Assembly: GCF_058153355.1 (NCBI RefSeq)
Contig: NZ_CM177019.1
Direction: 5' to 3' (one strand)
Length of the DNA stretch: 64,000 nt
A program made the translations under genes and the position numbers. Under the pieces are notes generated by a model, which saw only the letters and a list, made by a program, of their open reading frames with translations, was not told the origin of the DNA and searched no databases. This document shows, one piece after another, positions 5,806 through 11,355 of the stretch. Within the stretch, counting starts at the first letter, position 1; each line of letters starts with the position of its first letter.

Positions 5806-5956
5806 TTACCACTCTGCTACGCTGTTATCTTCATGACGCCAGAGCGGATTACGCCAGTCCGGGGCATTTTTACTGAACTCAATGACTTTGGCTTCGTCGA
5901 TTTCTACGCCTAAGCCCGGTTTCGTTAATGGTTTAAAGAAGCCGCCGACCATGCTG
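5806..5956 (-). pseudogene. dgoD: 3' fragment of dgoD (D-galactonate dehydratase), truncated by IS4
   Basis: Last ~49 codons ([27 protein letters not shown]...NSVAEW) match the DgoD C-terminus; reading frame runs directly into the IS4 end at 5957. Confidence 0.7.
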
Positions 5957-7382
5957 TAATGCCAGTCAGTTAAGCAACTGACTGGCTCTTTTTCGGGGCT
6001 GTGGGGTATTTCCAGGGCCTCTCCTTTACCACTCTCGGGAAGGCCCTTTCCCTTCTTGTCGGTAATTTCACAAGTTGTCCCATACTTGCAAGATCGCGCA
6101 TCAGCTCCGGTATACGTCCCGGTGAAGCGCCCTGCAATGTCATCAGCATTCTCATCACCATTCCGCATGATTCTGAGAAACTCAGTTGATTCGGCCAGTA
6201 ACCTTTCAGATGTTCCGCCATTTTAATCATCTGATATCTCACCAGATTATAAGCCAGTAAGACACCCCACAGCTCTTGCTCCACAAGCTCCGGCTTTTTA
6301 CTTCTCAGCGTCAGCCTGCTCAGTTGCATCGTCTGTTTTATCTCCCTGTATCCCAGTTCGATTTCCCAGCGATGACTGTACAGATCCGCCATTTCTCCTC
6401 CGGGGAAGCGCATGGCGTCCGTCATCGACGTCAGCAGATGGCAGACTTTTCCTTTGCGCGTCACGGTCAGCAGGCGGGCTGTCACTTCATTTCCCAGTCC
6501 CGGCCACTTTTTTCGTGCCTGCGGGCTGGTTTTCAGCTTCACCAGATGATCGCCTTTACCCAGTTTTCTGATCTCTTCATATTGCGCTCCCTTTCTGAGA
6601 GGTATCATCCAGTGGCGGTGTTCTCCCGCCAGGCTCCAGGCATTTAACAGTCCCAGTGAGTAATAACCTTTATCCATTAACGTCAGAGTGTTATCGCCGG
6701 TTTGTTCTATAAGTTGCTCAGCAAGCTCATTTTCGCTGTTCTTCATCGTGCCGAAGGCTGCAGCCGTCAGCAGATGGCTGGTCAGTTCCATCTGGCAGAC
6801 CATTTTGACCTGCGGGTAGAGCGCCGGGTTCCCGGCATGTGTCTGGCGGGGGAAGGCTGCATCGTTCTCTGGTGTATCCGGTGTGCGCCAGAACACACCA
6901 TCGATGGCCAGCAGGGTCAGGCCGCACCAGTGCGGATGCGGCGTGGCGTTATGCCAGAGCTGCGCTGTTTTCGTGAACACGCGGCGGACAGCCTCACTTC
7001 CCAGGCGCTGGCGGGCCTGAATAACGGCACTGGGGGCAACGAAGGGGCGATTGCCCGGCAGCATGATGTCCAGGCGATTCACAATCTGGTGAAGAGGTTC
7101 TTTACGCTCAAGCGCCATGCCAACAATACACCAGACCATCATTTCGAGGGGAAGACGGCGCTTGCGTAGCGTTACAGTACCTGATTCGGCAAGGCAACGA
7201 GAGATGAGTTCGGGGTCGAGGTAATCCCCCAGAGAAGTCAGTGGGTTACGCAGAGAATCGTAACGGGATACCAGATCAAGAGCCTGTCCAATGTGCATAA
7301 AAAAATCCGGAAACAAGTGAGCGTTTCCGGATTCTTACACAGCCACTGGATCGGTCAACTGATCCTTAACTGATCGGCATTA
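5957..7382 (-). mobile_element. IS4 insertion sequence, complete (1426 bp)
   Basis: Terminal inverted repeats TAATGCCAGTCAGTTAAG (5957-5974) and reverse complement of TAATGCCGATCAGTTAAG (7365-7382); single transposase ORF inside; length equals canonical IS4. Confidence 0.92.
5970..7298 (-). CDS. insG: IS4 transposase
   Basis: 442 aa from [20 protein letters not shown] matches the IS4 transposase (DDE family); track ORF 5970..7316 has 6 extra N-terminal codons. Confidence 0.88.
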
Positions 7383-7490
7383 GGCCAAATCGGTCCCGTT
7401 TTTTTTCGCCTTTATTTCGGAGAAGTGTCCAGAGGGGCAAGGGGATTCGGGGGAGTATAATTTCGCCATTCAGAAAGAATGGAAAGAATA

Positions 7491-8017
7491 ATGCAAAACA
7501 GAAAATGGATTTTGACCTCGCTGATAATGACTTTTTTCGGCATCCCCATACTGGCGCAATTACCAACTGGCGCACGGTTGGCGGTAACGATCAGGAGATC
7601 CAGACCTGGCAACGCCCGGAAGACTCTGGCAGCCAGACAGTGATGCAATCGCAGGTCATGAAAAATGTCCGCATGATCTCGCCGCAGGAAACCGAAGTGG
7701 CAAGCATGATGGAGGGAATGATTAAAGTTGTTGCCGAATACCGTAATACAAACAACTCAATAGGCTACACCTTCCGCTATTACGCAACACAAATGAACGC
7801 CGATAAAAATATAAAACTGCTAGCTATTAACGGTATTGCACCGACTGCGGAAAATATTCGTAACGGCAAATATCCGTATATCGTCGATGCCTTTATGGTA
7901 ACGCGGGAAAATACTACGTCAGAAACACAAAAACTGGTCGAATGGTTTTTAACGCCGCAGGGGCAGAGTCTGGTGGAAGATGTGGGCTATGTGCCGCTGT
8001 ATCCAACAATGAAATAA
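7491..8017 (+). pseudogene. yzgL: yzgL-like internally deleted PstS-like binding-protein gene
   Basis: ATG at 7491 encodes a signal-peptide-like start (MQNRKWILTSLIMTFFGIPILA) that runs out of frame after ~50 codons. Frame +2 (track ORF 7505..8017) encodes only the C-terminal half of a protein paralogous to the downstream 330 aa lipoprotein. Confidence 0.6.
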
Positions 8018-8042
8018 CGCTCGAGAGAAAGGAATCAGCGCA

Positions 8043-9035
8043 ATGAATAAATTCACCGGTGTTTTACTATTAGGTACGGCGTTACTGGCGGGATGTGTCG
8101 ACCGGGAAGGGTACTATAACAGCGTCAGGGAAGAAGAGAGTCATGGACTGACGTCTCTGCGGGGGCAACCTGAATTACGTTACAGCGATGATTGGTCAAG
8201 ATGGCCGAGAGTGTACGGCGCTACAGCCTTATACCCGCTGTATGCCTCCGCGTATTATGAATTAGTACCCGAGCCAAAAGATAAGGATCGAACCTCGCTG
8301 GCCTGGCAGGCGTATGGTTTGCAACAAACCCGAACAGCTGAAGCCTACGATAGTCTGATCAAGGGTACCGCGACGGTTATTTTTGTTGCACAACCGTCGG
8401 AAGGACAGAAAAAACGTGCAGAAGAAGCAGGCGTTAAACTGAAATATACCGCGTTTGCCCGCGAAGCCTTTGTCTTTATCGTTGATATCAAAAACCCGGT
8501 TAATTCACTTAGCGAACAGCAAGTCAAAGACATTTTTAGCGGTAAAGTGAGTCGCTGGAATAAAGTGGGCGGCGGTGACGAAAGTATAAAAGTCTGGCAG
8601 CGGCCAGAAGATTCTGGAAGCCAAACGGTTATGAAGGGACTGGTTATGCAAGATACTCCAATGCTGCCAGCCAAAAAATCCACTGTTATCGATCTTATGG
8701 GCGGTTTAATTACCGAAGTCGCCGACTACCAAAACACACCATCTTCCATTGGATACACCTTCCACTATTACGTCACACGTATGAATGACAATATGCTCAA
8801 AATGCGCAAACAGATCAAACTGCTGGCTATAAATGGCGTTGCACCTACAGAGGAAAATATCCGTAACGGCACTTATCCGTACATAATTGATGCTTATATG
8901 GTGACGCACGAAAACCCTACGCTGGAAACGCAGAAATTCGTCGACTGGTTTTTAAGCCCGCAGGGACAGCAATTGGTAGAGGATGTGGGGTATGTGCCGA
9001 TTCATGACGCATCATACGAATCATCAGTGCAATAA
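8043..9035 (+). CDS. putative lipoprotein with PstS/phosphate-binding-protein-like domain
   Basis: 330 aa ORF with Shine-Dalgarno AAGGA, lipobox LLAGC, and C-terminal half about 60% identical by eye to the upstream pseudogene. Family assignment is by motif impression only. Confidence 0.7.
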   Translation: MNKFTGVLLLGTALLAGCVDREGYYNSVREEESHGLTSLRGQPELRYSDDWSRWPRVYGATALYPLYASAYYELVPEPKDKDRTSLAWQAYGLQQTRTAEAYDSLIKGTATVIFVAQPSEGQKKRAEEAGVKLKYTAFAREAFVFIVDIKNPVNSLSEQQVKDIFSGKVSRWNKVGGGDESIKVWQRPEDSGSQTVMKGLVMQDTPMLPAKKSTVIDLMGGLITEVADYQNTPSSIGYTFHYYVTRMNDNMLKMRKQIKLLAINGVAPTEENIRNGTYPYIIDAYMVTHENPTLETQKFVDWFLSPQGQQLVEDVGYVPIHDASYESSVQ

Positions 9036-9637
9036 TGATGAATAAAATCAGACTTTATATTCCTCCGTTAATTCTTGGTTTTGTTATTGTGCCGTTGTTG
9101 GTGTGGCCGACGGTGGTTGCGCTGGCTGCTTCTGTTATCACGCTGAGTTTTCTGGGAGAGATACTGTTCTCTATCCCGCTCATGATCAGGCATATTTCGC
9201 TTCTGCAATTACAACTATGGTTATCGGCTGAATATGCGCTTTTCTGCTGTGCAATGGTGGGCGTTGGTTGGCAATTTGCTCGTATAACTCAATCCGAATC
9301 GAAAAGCAGACTGCATTGTTGGCTGGTATTTGCACCAGTTTATTTCTGGTTGCTCCTGTGGAATATCATTTTCTATGTCGCGCCAGCGAATATTGCGTTG
9401 CTGGAGAATATGCGCAGTTTCTTTCTGACAGTTGTCTGGCTCCCACTGAATTTTTCGCCATTTTGGTCTCAACCGTGGATTGACTTTGTCGGTCCAATAA
9501 GCGCACAGCTTGGTTTTGCGTTGGGATATTATTGCCAGTGGCGTAGCAAAAATAGAAGCCAGATACGGAAGTGGAGTGAGTGGGGAACGTGCCTGAGTTT
9601 TGTTACGTTGGGTATGATGGCGTGGGCTTTGCGGTAA
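9035..9637 (+). CDS. polytopic inner-membrane protein of unknown function
   Basis: 200 aa ORF whose start overlaps the upstream stop (TAATG), implying translational coupling; several hydrophobic segments rich in W/F/L. Confidence 0.6.
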   Translation: MMNKIRLYIPPLILGFVIVPLLVWPTVVALAASVITLSFLGEILFSIPLMIRHISLLQLQLWLSAEYALFCCAMVGVGWQFARITQSESKSRLHCWLVFAPVYFWLLLWNIIFYVAPANIALLENMRSFFLTVVWLPLNFSPFWSQPWIDFVGPISAQLGFALGYYCQWRSKNRSQIRKWSEWGTCLSFVTLGMMAWALR

Positions 9638-9689
9638 TTCCCTGACTTAAAAAGTAGGTCAGATTGTTGACAAAGTGCGCTTTGTTCAT

Positions 9690-9798
9690 GCCGGATGCGA
9701 CATGAACGTCTTATTGGCCTACAAGACCATGCAAATTCAATATATTGCATAAGCCACGTAGGCCTGATAAGCGTAGCGCATCAGGCAGTTTTTTGTTT
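9690..9798. repeat. REP / BIME-like palindromic units
   Basis: gccggatgcgacatgaacgtcttattggcctac and gtaggcctgataagcgtagcgcatcaggcag resemble the E. coli REP consensus, located 3' of glpD. Confidence 0.5.
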
Positions 9799-9849
9799 AT
9801 CATCAGTCGCAGGTCAGATTGAAATCTGACCCGGCCACCTTACGTTAAT

Positions 9850-11355
9850 TTACGACGCCAGCGACAACCTCTGCTGCGTATACTCCCCCAGCCACTGACT
9901 CACACGGGATTGTTGCTGCGCATTCAGCCACATGCCTTGTTTTGTGCGACGCCACAGGGCATCGTCGGCGCGGCGGACCCATTCGTGATCCACAAGGTAT
10001 TTCAGCTCCGCTTCGTAGAACTCATGACCGAAATCTTCCCCGAGATCGCCTATCGCCCCCGCATTGCCGAGCAGCAGCTCGCTGTTGCTGCCGTAAGTGC
10101 GCGCGTAGTGACGTGCCAGCGATTCAGTCAGGAACGGATAACGGCGGCGCAAGCGAGCGGCATAATCGTCGCGGTCGCCCTCGATGGCACCACCCGGCAG
10201 CACGCTCTCTTTCGTCCACGCCGGGCCAATGCCCTGATAATACGGCGTCAGTTTTTCCAGCGCGTGCTCCGCCAGTTTGCGGTAGGTGGTCAGCTTACCG
10301 CCGAATACCGATAACAGCGGAGCTTTGCCGTTTTCATCATGGATATCGAGCGTGTAATCACGGGTAATGGCCTGCGGCGAATCGGACTCATCATCACACA
10401 GTGGACGCACGCCGGAGTAGGTCCAGACGATATCATCCCGGCTTAGCGGCTTTTTAAAGTGCGCGTTATACACTTTCAGCAGGTAATTGATTTCACTCTC
10501 TTCAATCTTCACCGCTTTCGGATCGCCTTTATACTCCACATCGGTGGTGCCGATAATGGAAAACTCGTCCATCCACGGGATCACGAAGACAATACGTTTA
10601 TCTTCGTTTTGCAGAATGTAGGCTTGCTTCTGGGTATGCACACGCGGCACGACAATATGGCTGCCTTTGATCAGGCGAATGCCATAAGGTGAGGGTAGAT
10701 GCATACCGTCGTCGAAGAACTGCTTCACCCACGGGCCGGTGGCGTTCACGAGGCCGCGCGCTTGCCAGCTATATTTTTTGCCGGTATCGATATCTTCCGC
10801 TTCCACAATCCACAGGCCGTTTTCGCGGCGAGCAGAAGTGGCACGAGTACGGGTAAGCACTTCACCGCCTTTACGCACCACCATCTGGGCGTTGGCGAGT
10901 ACCAGACGGGCGTCGTCTACCCAACAGTCGGAATATTCGAATCCGCGCTTAATTTCCGGTTTTAACACTGAATTTGCGCCAAAACGCAAACCGGTTGATC
11001 CCGGCAGGCTGGTGCGTTTACCCAGATGATCGTACATAAACAGACCAATACGGATCATCCACGCCGGACGCAGACGCGGGCGATGCGGCAGGCGAAAACG
11101 CATCGGGAAAGCGATATGGGGAGCCATTTTCAGCAACACTTCACGTTCAGCCAGCGCCTCGCTGACCAGGCGGAATTCATAGTGCTCAAGGTAGCGCAGG
11201 CCACCATGAATGAGTTTTGAACTGGCGGAAGAGGTCGCACAAGCGAGATCCTGCGCCTCCAGCATCAGCACGGATAAACCGCGTCCAGCGGCGTCTGCCG
11301 CGATACCAGCACCATTGATGCCGCCACCTATCACAATCAGATCTTTGGTTTCCAT
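9850..11355 (-). CDS. glpD: aerobic glycerol-3-phosphate dehydrogenase
   Basis: 501 aa from METKDLIVIGGGINGAGIAADAAGRG (FAD-binding motif); track ORF is extended 5 codons. Confidence 0.94.
   Translation of the reverse strand: METKDLIVIGGGINGAGIAADAAGRGLSVLMLEAQDLACATSSASSKLIHGGLRYLEHYEFRLVSEALAEREVLLKMAPHIAFPMRFRLPHRPRLRPAWMIRIGLFMYDHLGKRTSLPGSTGLRFGANSVLKPEIKRGFEYSDCWVDDARLVLANAQMVVRKGGEVLTRTRATSARRENGLWIVEAEDIDTGKKYSWQARGLVNATGPWVKQFFDDGMHLPSPYGIRLIKGSHIVVPRVHTQKQAYILQNEDKRIVFVIPWMDEFSIIGTTDVEYKGDPKAVKIEESEINYLLKVYNAHFKKPLSRDDIVWTYSGVRPLCDDESDSPQAITRDYTLDIHDENGKAPLLSVFGGKLTTYRKLAEHALEKLTPYYQGIGPAWTKESVLPGGAIEGDRDDYAARLRRRYPFLTESLARHYARTYGSNSELLLGNAGAIGDLGEDFGHEFYEAELKYLVDHEWVRRADDALWRRTKQGMWLNAQQQSRVSQWLGEYTQQRLSLAS

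Follow-up and report, generated by a model that had tools for sequence, protein, structure and literature searches.

An accessory island of Escherichia coli between glgP and glpD with a PstS-like lipoprotein gene, a coupled membrane-module gene and a broken gene that fuses both domains

Results

Layout and borders of the island

The window analysed here is a stretch of 64,000 nucleotides from contig NZ_CM177019.1 (assembly GCF_058153355.1). On the glpD side of its glgP–glpD interval lies a three-gene accessory island of E. coli that varies between strains. The island is bordered on the left by an IS4 element (5957–7382, minus strand; transposase ORF of 448 aa at 5970–7316), which adjoins it at 7382/7383 and is described for context only, as it lies outside the system. 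Many E. coli genomes share the identical IS4 insertion between glgP and gene 1. The island starts with a leader (7383–7490, plus strand) that contains the right arm and T-run of the glgP terminator followed by the 5′ UTR of gene 1, and that is collinear, at 99.4%, with positions 6001–6108 of L001 from E. coli R32_14_1F. No Pho box was seen by eye in 7383–7490, and a promoter scan upstream of gene 1 returned nothing above chance. Between IS4 and glpD there is no ABC permease or ATPase gene, as an earlier note made from the sequence alone had stated.

Gene 1 is a deleted fusion gene

The first in-frame ATG of gene 1 is at 7479, and translation from the ATG at 7491 begins with MQNRKW, as is typical of the family. 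The 5′ piece of the gene (7491–7561, plus strand; L001 6109–6179) consists of 23 codons and 2 nt and encodes the start of helix 1 of a membrane module. The 3′ piece (7553–8017, plus strand; L001 7150–7614) holds the last 154 codons and the stop codon, encodes part of a PstS-like domain, and is out of frame with the 5′ piece. In E. coli R32_14_1F gene 1 is intact, and its 502-aa product combines a polytopic membrane module of about 215 aa with a PstS-like domain. This intact allele carries the 10-bp direct repeat TGGCGCAATT twice, at L001 6170–6179 and 7149–7158, 979 bp apart. One copy is left in the window, at the deletion junction (7552–7561), and the two BLAST segments between the window and the intact allele overlap by exactly these 10 bases. 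Gene 1 of the window is thus a pseudogene, formed by a 979-bp frameshifting deletion between the two TGGCGCAATT copies. The deletion took away the N-lobe of the binding domain and the greater part of the membrane module. None of 5426 complete E. coli genomes has this junction, and 3346 of them contain the segment from the centre of gene 1 that is deleted in the window.

The comparison with the intact allele changes how the broken gene is to be read. The stretch that had been read as the retained start of a signal peptide forms the first helix of the membrane domain, and the frame breaks 23 codons past ATG 7491 (27 past ATG 7479) rather than after about 50. In the remnant ORF (7505–8017) the C-terminal 156 aa are 60% identical to residues 166–321 of the gene 2 product (E 8e-70), the value previously estimated by eye. 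The binding domains of genes 1 and 2 are indeed paralogs (58–60% identity), but the broken gene is a fusion of membrane module and binding domain and not a second lipoprotein gene. Of the tandem duplication followed by internal deletion that the earlier note had proposed, the deletion stands. The duplication, however, is old and not a recent tandem event in this strain: the stand-alone lipoproteins from different genera of Enterobacteriaceae group together in a clade of their own, and dS between E. coli alleles is 0.3–1.0.

In K-12 MG1655 yzgL alone lies between glgP and glpD, which agrees with the expectation that the intact pair is strain-variable. The first ~72 codons of yzgL (b3427, "putative uncharacterized protein") are the start of gene 1, and yzgL is the scar of a 2.84-kb deletion that begins in gene 1 and stops within the 3′ end of gene 3. 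The island accounts for the origin of this K-12 orphan. Whereas yzgL lost 2.84 kb, the window has its 979-bp deletion inside gene 1 and has kept genes 2 and 3. The literature on yzgL and Ybl142 contained nothing functional.

Gene 2 encodes a PstS-like lipoprotein

Gene 2 (8043–9035, plus strand) is intact and encodes a lipoprotein of 330 aa whose type II binding-protein domain is PstS-like (Pfam PBP_like_2, PF12849, 1.7e-29). Its translation opens with MNKFTGVLLLGTALLAG directly followed by Cys, a lipobox (LLAG-C) that was read from the sequence and conforms to the pattern [LVI][ASTVI][GAS]C. The Pseudocitrobacter and Salmonella homologs have lipoboxes as well. Since the residue at +2 after the lipid-modified Cys is Val and not Asp, the classical +2 rule predicts sorting to the outer membrane, away from an inner-membrane partner. 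All PDB sequence matches of the protein are phosphate-binding proteins (E down to 4e-16), and the exact protein is encoded on 25 public contigs.

Gene 3 is a stand-alone copy of the membrane module

Gene 3 (9035–9637, plus strand) encodes an intact 200-aa membrane protein. The TAA stop codon of gene 2 (9033–9035) shares its final A with the ATG of gene 3 (9035–9037), so that both ORFs and their TAATG coupling, already described from the sequence, were confirmed. What had been missed is that the coupled membrane protein is homologous to the N-terminal domain of gene 1, i.e. to the module deleted there (hhalign probability 98.1%, E 1.1e-13, 166 columns). In addition, a profile built exclusively from fusions matches the gene 3 homolog P0141 in hmmsearch (E 3.5e-8). 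Because of this homology the layout of the island is [TM-PBP][PBP][TM]: a fusion gene, a gene for a PstS-like lipoprotein and a gene for the membrane module by itself.

No Pfam or NCBIfam model matched gene 3, and no Pfam family, ABC permease families included, matched any of 45 module sequences. An AF2 model of the module (pLDDT 88.9, pTM 0.86) found no solved structural counterpart and no match outside its own family in the structure search. The AFDB50 matches at E<1 are annotated phosphate-binding/PBP proteins or Escherichia proteins, with the single exception of an uncharacterised 228-aa Mesobacillus protein. Among 1.84 billion representatives only 183 clusters match the module, and these are mostly 470–520 aa long. 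The module is an undescribed domain family that occurs almost only together with this type of PBP.

The exact gene 3 protein is found on 9 contigs. Gene 3 has a dN/dS of 0.20 against a 78%-identical allele, gene 1 a dN/dS of 0.13 and the module part of gene 1 of 0.175; genes 1 and 3 are under purifying selection. As a separate module gene persists even though its partner is lipid-anchored, and is under selection, the module is probably more than an anchor. Module-only ORFs beside fusion genes recur in one Campylobacteraceae and one Opitutaceae genome. Between the long and short forms of the family no polar residue of the module is conserved: the residues shared by both forms all lie in the binding domain and none in the membrane part, which is unlike what a conserved translocation path would predict. 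As to topology, six helices with the N-terminus inside would place the PBP inside the cell, and the charge pattern and the three-segment Bacillales form give conflicting answers on which helices span the membrane.

The binding domain has a PstS-type fold and keeps most PstS ligand positions

Profile searches and structure prediction, which the earlier note had suggested as a check, point to the same fold. The domain matches the type II periplasmic binding protein family PBP_like_2, and the AF2 model of the intact fusion (pLDDT 90.2, pTM 0.80) has PstS structures as its best Foldseek matches, with target TM-scores up to 0.80. Likewise, the family profile finds only phosphate-binding proteins in the PDB (E down to 6e-25). 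The intact fusion consists of the helical module (residues 1–202) and the PBP domain and nothing else; it has no cytoplasmic transmitter or signalling domain, the cytoplasmic loops of the module are about 15 residues or shorter, and gene 3 stops after the last helix.

Aligned with E. coli PstS by hhalign (a weak match: 82%, E 1e-5), the pocket residues T10, S38, R135 and D137 correspond to T61, T98, R187 and E189, and S139-G140-T141 to S191-G192-S193. The mapped positions vary little or not at all within the family, Bacillales included. T10, S38, R135, S139, G140 and T141 of PstS are all kept or conservatively replaced, whereas D56 aligns to Ala116 or Gln117, so the ligand need not be orthophosphate. 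The family also has invariant residues of its own (E322, N332, W353, Q367, Q375, Y410, N412 and W478 in gene 1 numbering). Against the NCBIfam PstS-family model TIGR02136, the intact gene 1 product scores 118.8 bits and the gene 2 product 120.8 bits, both below the curated cut-off of 206.6 bits.

Relatives, neighbours and other alleles

Relatives occur in at least 562 species. In hundreds of species the family is represented by one gene that is complete in itself and has no ABC permease or ATPase gene next to it. Nine related contexts with called genes contained neither an ABC partner nor a conserved neighbour, and no neighbour recurred in 79 further loci, the best neighbour cluster being present in 10 of the 79. 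A conserved operon partner was rejected on the basis of these 79 loci.

In most E. coli genomes gene 3 is preceded by two unrelated cytoplasmic-looking genes instead of a PBP gene, and most carry a YbbD_head-like gene within the island. In other E. coli, the proteins of the alternative cassette (236 aa and 255 aa) match no Pfam family and have only a weakly YbbD-head-like N-terminus. PADLOC gave no match to these proteins or to the three island proteins, and a known defence system was rejected. Toxin fusions were rejected for two long variants: P0395 (675 aa) is a hybrid of genes 1 and 2 fused to gene 3, and P0013 contains no toxin domain. In P0013 a 231-aa N-terminal extension annotated as Pfam PF01594 replaces the first 44 residues of the module. 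The island could not be linked to OI-133, whose papers do not name the genes of the island. E. coli has fused, split, hybrid (675 aa) and deleted alleles.

Discussion

The locus is a three-gene island with a broken fusion gene, for which we tentatively propose an ATPase-free mechanism that involves a binding protein and a membrane module. Our best guess is a putative stand-alone system, independent of an ATPase, in which binding of a phosphate-type anion is followed by transfer of the anion, or of a signal, to the module. The binding domain would be located outside the cytoplasmic membrane and would close, via the conserved Thr/Thr/Arg/Ser-Gly-Ser pocket, around an oxyanion of the phosphate type or around a larger ligand at its phosphoryl group. 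The ligand-loaded domain would then dock on its cognate membrane module, which would, with no ATPase involved, either let the ligand pass or signal the bound state to other membrane proteins. The split pair, lipoprotein (gene 2) and module (gene 3), would be made together and do the equivalent job in trans. The strain studied here would have to rely on the split pair only, and expression of the pair may be lowered by polarity from the broken upstream gene. The wider proposition, that the module is the membrane half of an unrecognised ATPase-free two-part system for uptake or sensing of phosphate or phosphoryl compounds, carried as one self-contained gene by at least several hundred species across phyla, is possible but doubtful. 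If it is true, E. coli has both versions, fused and split, next to each other.

The proteins may instead have an auxiliary role as membrane-tethered phosphate-binding proteins that supply the housekeeping PstCAB encoded elsewhere, with the module as a tether only, a reading that we also regard with considerable doubt. The PstS-family fold and pocket and the presence of pstSCAB elsewhere in E. coli are in line with it. The confinement of the residues conserved across phyla to the PBP would suit a domain that docks on a universal partner, for instance PstCA. The poor conservation of the membrane part between long and short forms also speaks for this reading. However, a tether leaves unexplained why a separate, translationally coupled, purifying-selected module-only protein is encoded beside a lipid-anchored PBP. 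Moreover, TIGR02136 scores of 119–121 bits are far below the PstS cut-off, Asp56 is not conserved, and adjacency to pstCAB was never found in the contexts read.

The absence of an energy-coupling component, and a Rahnella gene located directly upstream of phoPQ, would be compatible with a periplasmic sensor, in which the module reports PBP occupancy to another membrane protein, e.g. a histidine kinase, and gene expression changes as a result. This seems unlikely, since the proteins have no cytoplasmic domain beyond their short loops and no regulator recurs among the neighbours; the putative equation of the island with OI-133 is based on locus-tag numbering only.

It is very unlikely, in our view, that these genes belong to inter-bacterial conflict islands, with a role in immunity or as decoy or receptor instead of nutrient handling. 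The pairwise dN/dS of 0.1–0.2 gives no sign of diversifying selection, the anion pocket is conserved across phyla, most relatives have ordinary chromosomal contexts, and neither a PADLOC match nor a toxin domain was found, the latter in the long variants examined. This conflict role nevertheless has the YbbD_head-like gene of most E. coli islands and the great age of the alleles in its favour. It is also consistent with a Salmonella island in which two gene 2-like lipoprotein genes alternate with a PAAR-like fragment, an HExxH protein, an Ntox34 fragment and a HEAT-repeat protein; that neighbourhood is the only link to toxin–immunity families. Finally, it is very hard to believe that everything in the island is junk that decays in this lineage and that mutations have so far merely spared genes 2 and 3. 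Gene 1 is dead here, K-12 has lost nearly all of the island and IS4 adjoins it, but 25 and 9 other contigs encode proteins identical to those of genes 2 and 3, respectively, gene 3 and the gene 1 alleles show purifying selection, and 3346 of 5426 complete genomes retain the central gene 1 segment that is deleted here.

Public annotation describes these proteins as [quoted passage not shown] and "hypothetical protein". These names hide that the binding domain has a conserved module of its own, that the "hypothetical" neighbour is the same module, and that there is no ABC transporter. If the pair works alone, as the preferred ATPase-free mechanism would have it, it would be a new bacterial way of handling phosphate-type anions at the membrane, for which the E. 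coli alleles, from fused to deleted, are natural test material. The glgP–glpD gap itself is a hot spot of old, exchangeable cassettes.

Comparison with known systems

The binding proteins of the island share their type II fold with PstS of the ABC importer PstSCAB (E. coli b3728; PDB 1ixh/2abh class), and Thr10, Ser38, Arg135, Asp137 and Ser139-Gly140-Thr141 of PstS have conserved or conservative counterparts in the family. Unlike PstS, they are tethered by a module of 5–6 helices or by a lipid anchor, Asp56 is replaced and no pstCAB is adjacent. The best sequence and structure matches are PstS proteins of the TIGR02136 type, namely 4gd5 and 4q8r (Clostridium perfringens), 4n13 (Borrelia), 1twy (Vibrio) and 9l8j (Synechocystis Sll0540), from which the island family differs by its N-terminal membrane module and its own invariant residues. 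According to its title, 4gd5 was solved with bound phosphate. ABC importers of the OpuA and GlnPQ type have a binding domain that is linked covalently to a polytopic membrane domain and lies outside the cytoplasmic membrane; the membrane domain of the island, in contrast, matches no Pfam family and is not accompanied by an ATPase gene. TRAP (DctPQM) and TTT (TctABC) systems combine a binding protein with membrane proteins and work without an ATPase. These secondary transporters would be the nearest analogy for the proposed mechanism, although the module, at about 200 aa, is much smaller and resembles neither DctQ/M nor TctA/B in sequence or fold.

A strain-variable island between glgP and glpD

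The island is bounded on the left by an IS4 element (5957-7382) and on the right by the convergent glpD. Gene 1 is represented by two overlapping plus-strand ORFs in different frames, one of 54 codons starting at 7479 and one of 170 codons ending at 8017. Two intact genes follow on the same strand, gene 2 (8043-9035, 330 codons) and gene 3 (9035-9637, 200 codons). The stop of gene 2 and the start of gene 3 share one base (TAATG), which confirms the coupling of a lipoprotein gene to a membrane protein gene described in the earlier note. The gene 2 product carries an N-terminal lipobox signal peptide (LLAG↓C) with Val at +2, and the classical rule for this residue predicts an outer-membrane lipoprotein. 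It matches PBP_like_2 in Pfam (1.7e-29), and within the PDB only phosphate-binding proteins are related to it in sequence. The 200-aa gene 3 product is hydrophobic along its whole length and matched no family in Pfam or NCBIfam. Alignment of the 170-codon ORF product with the C-terminal half of the gene 2 product gave 60% identity (E 8e-70), as had been estimated by eye for a paralog reduced to that half. The gene 3-glpD spacer (9640-9850) looks like REP/BIME-type palindromic repeats, which is probably why the region query matched 5-43 places per genome (median 18).

The complete genome nearest to the window region is that of E. coli R32_14_1F (99.5% identity), in which an intact 1509-bp gene takes the place of the two short ORFs. 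Window positions 7383-7561 correspond to 6001-6179 of this locus (L001) and 7552-9900 to 7149-9497, with 10 bases shared by both matches. The intact allele has two copies of these bases, TGGCGCAATT, at a distance of 979 bp. Therefore, 979 bp were lost from the window between short direct repeats. Since 979 is not a multiple of three, the deletion is frameshifting, and the first 23 and last 154 codons of gene 1 are left. The junction occurs in 0 of 5426 complete E. coli genomes, thus the lesion is private to the window's lineage. In the intact 502-aa product, a polytopic membrane domain (the module, first ~215 residues) precedes a PstS-like binding domain (PBP), which rules out gene 1 as a second lipoprotein gene. 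Polarity from the frameshift may lower the expression of genes 2 and 3. The RefSeq CDS of the intact fusion gene begins at an ATA codon (L001 6106-6108). ATG codons lie 9 bases before and 3 bases after it, and the second of these gives the family-typical MQNRKW.

The right flank of IS4 is the glgP-gene 1 spacer. On its left, in place of glgP, is the end of dgoD (~50 codons), with dgoT, cbrA and yidR before it (window 5806-7382). The dgoD-IS4-spacer junction was found in no complete E. coli genome. Since the two flanks are ~340 kb apart in R32_14_1F, this looks like recombination between two IS4 copies, probably an inversion, with dgoD truncated by the same event.

Comparison of the glpD-glgP interval among the 5426 complete genomes showed that the locus is a strain-variable island, annotated and uncharacterised. 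The segment of gene 1 deleted in the window, its central part, is present in 3346 of them, and the whole three-gene arrangement seen in the window in 878. Most other E. coli genomes have gene 1, then a 236-aa gene with a YbbD_head-like N-terminus and a 255-aa gene without known family (or the latter only), then an allele of gene 3 with 78% identity at the DNA level (loci L007 4627-6715, L008, L009 and L017). The island's middle part behaves like an exchangeable cassette. As the earlier note stated, only yzgL remains in K-12. In this strain, a 2.84-kb deletion begins at gene 1 codon ~73 and ends within the final 60 bp of gene 3. Compared with L001 6332-9174, yzgL (MG1655 3563724-3564005, locus L006) is a chimera in which ~72 codons from the start of the module-PBP gene are joined, with an 8-bp overlap at the deletion, to the 3′ end of gene 3 read out of frame; its sequence identifies it as the deletion scar. 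The dN/dS values of gene 1 (0.13; module 0.175, PBP 0.096; dS 0.33) and gene 3 (0.20; dS about 1.0) indicate old alleles under purifying selection.

The glpD gene of the window (9850-11355) has a dS of 0.23 against K-12 and 0.058 against R32_14_1F. This divergence seems to us high for a core gene of E. coli and suggests that the lineage is divergent or that the flanks at this hot spot were imported. In the glgP-glpD gap of another Escherichia locus (L018 3487-6981, Logan SRR024119), the PBP part is expanded further: a 516-aa fusion gene precedes two stand-alone PBP genes (of 307 and 326 aa) and three small uncharacterised genes.

One membrane module, fused and stand-alone

We built one profile from 80 fusion proteins, restricted to their N-terminal 215 residues, and a second from 51 gene 3 protein homologs. 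The two profiles aligned over 166 columns (probability 98.1%, E 1.1e-13), and among 1.84 billion representative proteins the fusion-only profile matched a homolog of the gene 3 protein near full length (E 3.5e-8). Therefore, the layout of the island is [module-PBP][PBP][module], and by this homology the same two parts are present once fused and once as separate genes.

The module is an undescribed family. None of 45 diverse members matched a Pfam family, and only 183 clusters of the representative library, mostly of 470-520 aa, match it. The AlphaFold2 model (pLDDT 88.9, pTM 0.86) is a bundle of six long helices with short connecting helices; its AFDB50 matches at E<1 are almost all annotated as phosphate-binding or PBP, or come from Escherichia. 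By charge counts, the C-terminus would be outside and the N-terminus inside, together with loops 2-3 and 5-6, an arrangement incompatible with six full spans. Yet the three-segment form of Bacillales implies that the last three module helices all span the membrane. New here are the recognition of this module, the finding that the 'hypothetical' neighbour is homologous to it, and the precise lesions of the window strain and K-12.

At the same locus in Pseudocitrobacter, a lipoprotein PBP gene overlaps a gene for the module and an internally shortened PBP. This suggests that E. coli gene 3 arose from a fusion gene by loss of the PBP part. On five E. coli contigs we found a natural 675-aa hybrid (P0395) of the module, a gene 1/gene 2 hybrid PBP and gene 3 from residue ~21, presumably the product of recombination between the two PBP paralogs and a deletion. 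In Pseudocitrobacter, the island-to-glpD gap holds a gene for a 142-aa secreted protein with ~8 tandem 'RD(R/A)NGN(T/D)xG(S/T)' repeats (L016 6231-6659); 142-aa genes occupy this position in L018.

Distribution across bacteria

Relatives occur in at least 562 species, as counted in a scan with one genome for each. The long form (480-530 aa, 5-6 hydrophobic segments) occurs in Enterobacterales, Betaproteobacteria, Campylobacterota, Clostridia, Synergistaceae, Treponema, Actinomycetota and Planctomycetes. The short form (~380-400 aa, three hydrophobic segments) aligns from profile position ~112 and dominates in Bacillales; the residues that are conserved in both forms all fall within the PBP domain. 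In distant lineages (L042, L090, L043, L027), fusion genes again occur in tandem or with a module-only ORF next to them. In a metagenomic locus, a fusion gene and the secreted PBP after it are each other's nearest relatives, which makes this an independent duplication.

Stand-alone lipoprotein copies from several genera form one clade beside the enterobacterial fusion PBPs (neighbour-joining tree, no bootstrap), thus the duplication is older than E. coli. The sequence observation of the earlier note was confirmed, and its interpretation, a tandem duplication followed by internal deletion, is partly supported: the internal deletion stands, but the duplication predates E. coli and the broken gene is a module-PBP fusion. 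Two Salmonella enterica loci (L014 1234-6909 and L019 6001-11671) have the organisation of an orphan toxin/immunity array, with two gene-2-like lipoprotein genes set among one PAAR-like and one Ntox34 fragment, an HExxH protein of 135 aa, a lipoprotein of 154 aa and a HEAT-repeat protein.

Among 79 loci, no neighbour family recurred beyond taxon-specific synteny (best cluster, 10 of 79), and pstCAB-like genes were in none of nine contexts read in detail. The claim that no ABC-transporter gene is adjacent was also borne out, as none lies between IS4 and glpD in the window.

Binding pocket and proposed working

The full-length fusion model (pLDDT 90.2, pTM 0.80) superposes best on PstS structures (9l8j, 4gd5, 1twy, 4n13, 4q8r), which agrees with the expected phosphate- or oxyanion-binding fold. 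The family profile was aligned to E. coli K-12 PstS. Thr10, Ser38, Arg135, Asp137 and Ser139-Gly140-Thr141 of PstS correspond to Thr61, Thr98, Arg187, Glu189 and Ser191-Gly192-Ser193 of the family, and these phosphate-ligand positions are invariant or near-invariant in each subgroup examined. The binding domain thus looks competent, as judged from model and alignment.

The two-part composition, the lack of a nearby ABC partner, the conserved anion pocket and the purifying selection on a module that is retained even where its partner PBP has its own lipid anchor lead us to the reading that we favour, at somewhat less than even odds, that the module is more than a tether. Once loaded with ligand, the PBP would dock on the module, and the two together would take up or sense a phosphate-type ligand as a self-contained, ATPase-independent unit.

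Scored with the NCBIfam PstS-family model, whose cut-off is 206.6 bits, the island proteins reach about 120 bits. They also differ from PstS at a ligand residue: Asp56, the hydrogen-bond acceptor from protonated phosphate, aligns to Ala or Gln in the module-PBP family. The likeliest ligand is a phosphoryl group or a tetrahedral anion of the phosphate type, of which orthophosphate would be one candidate.
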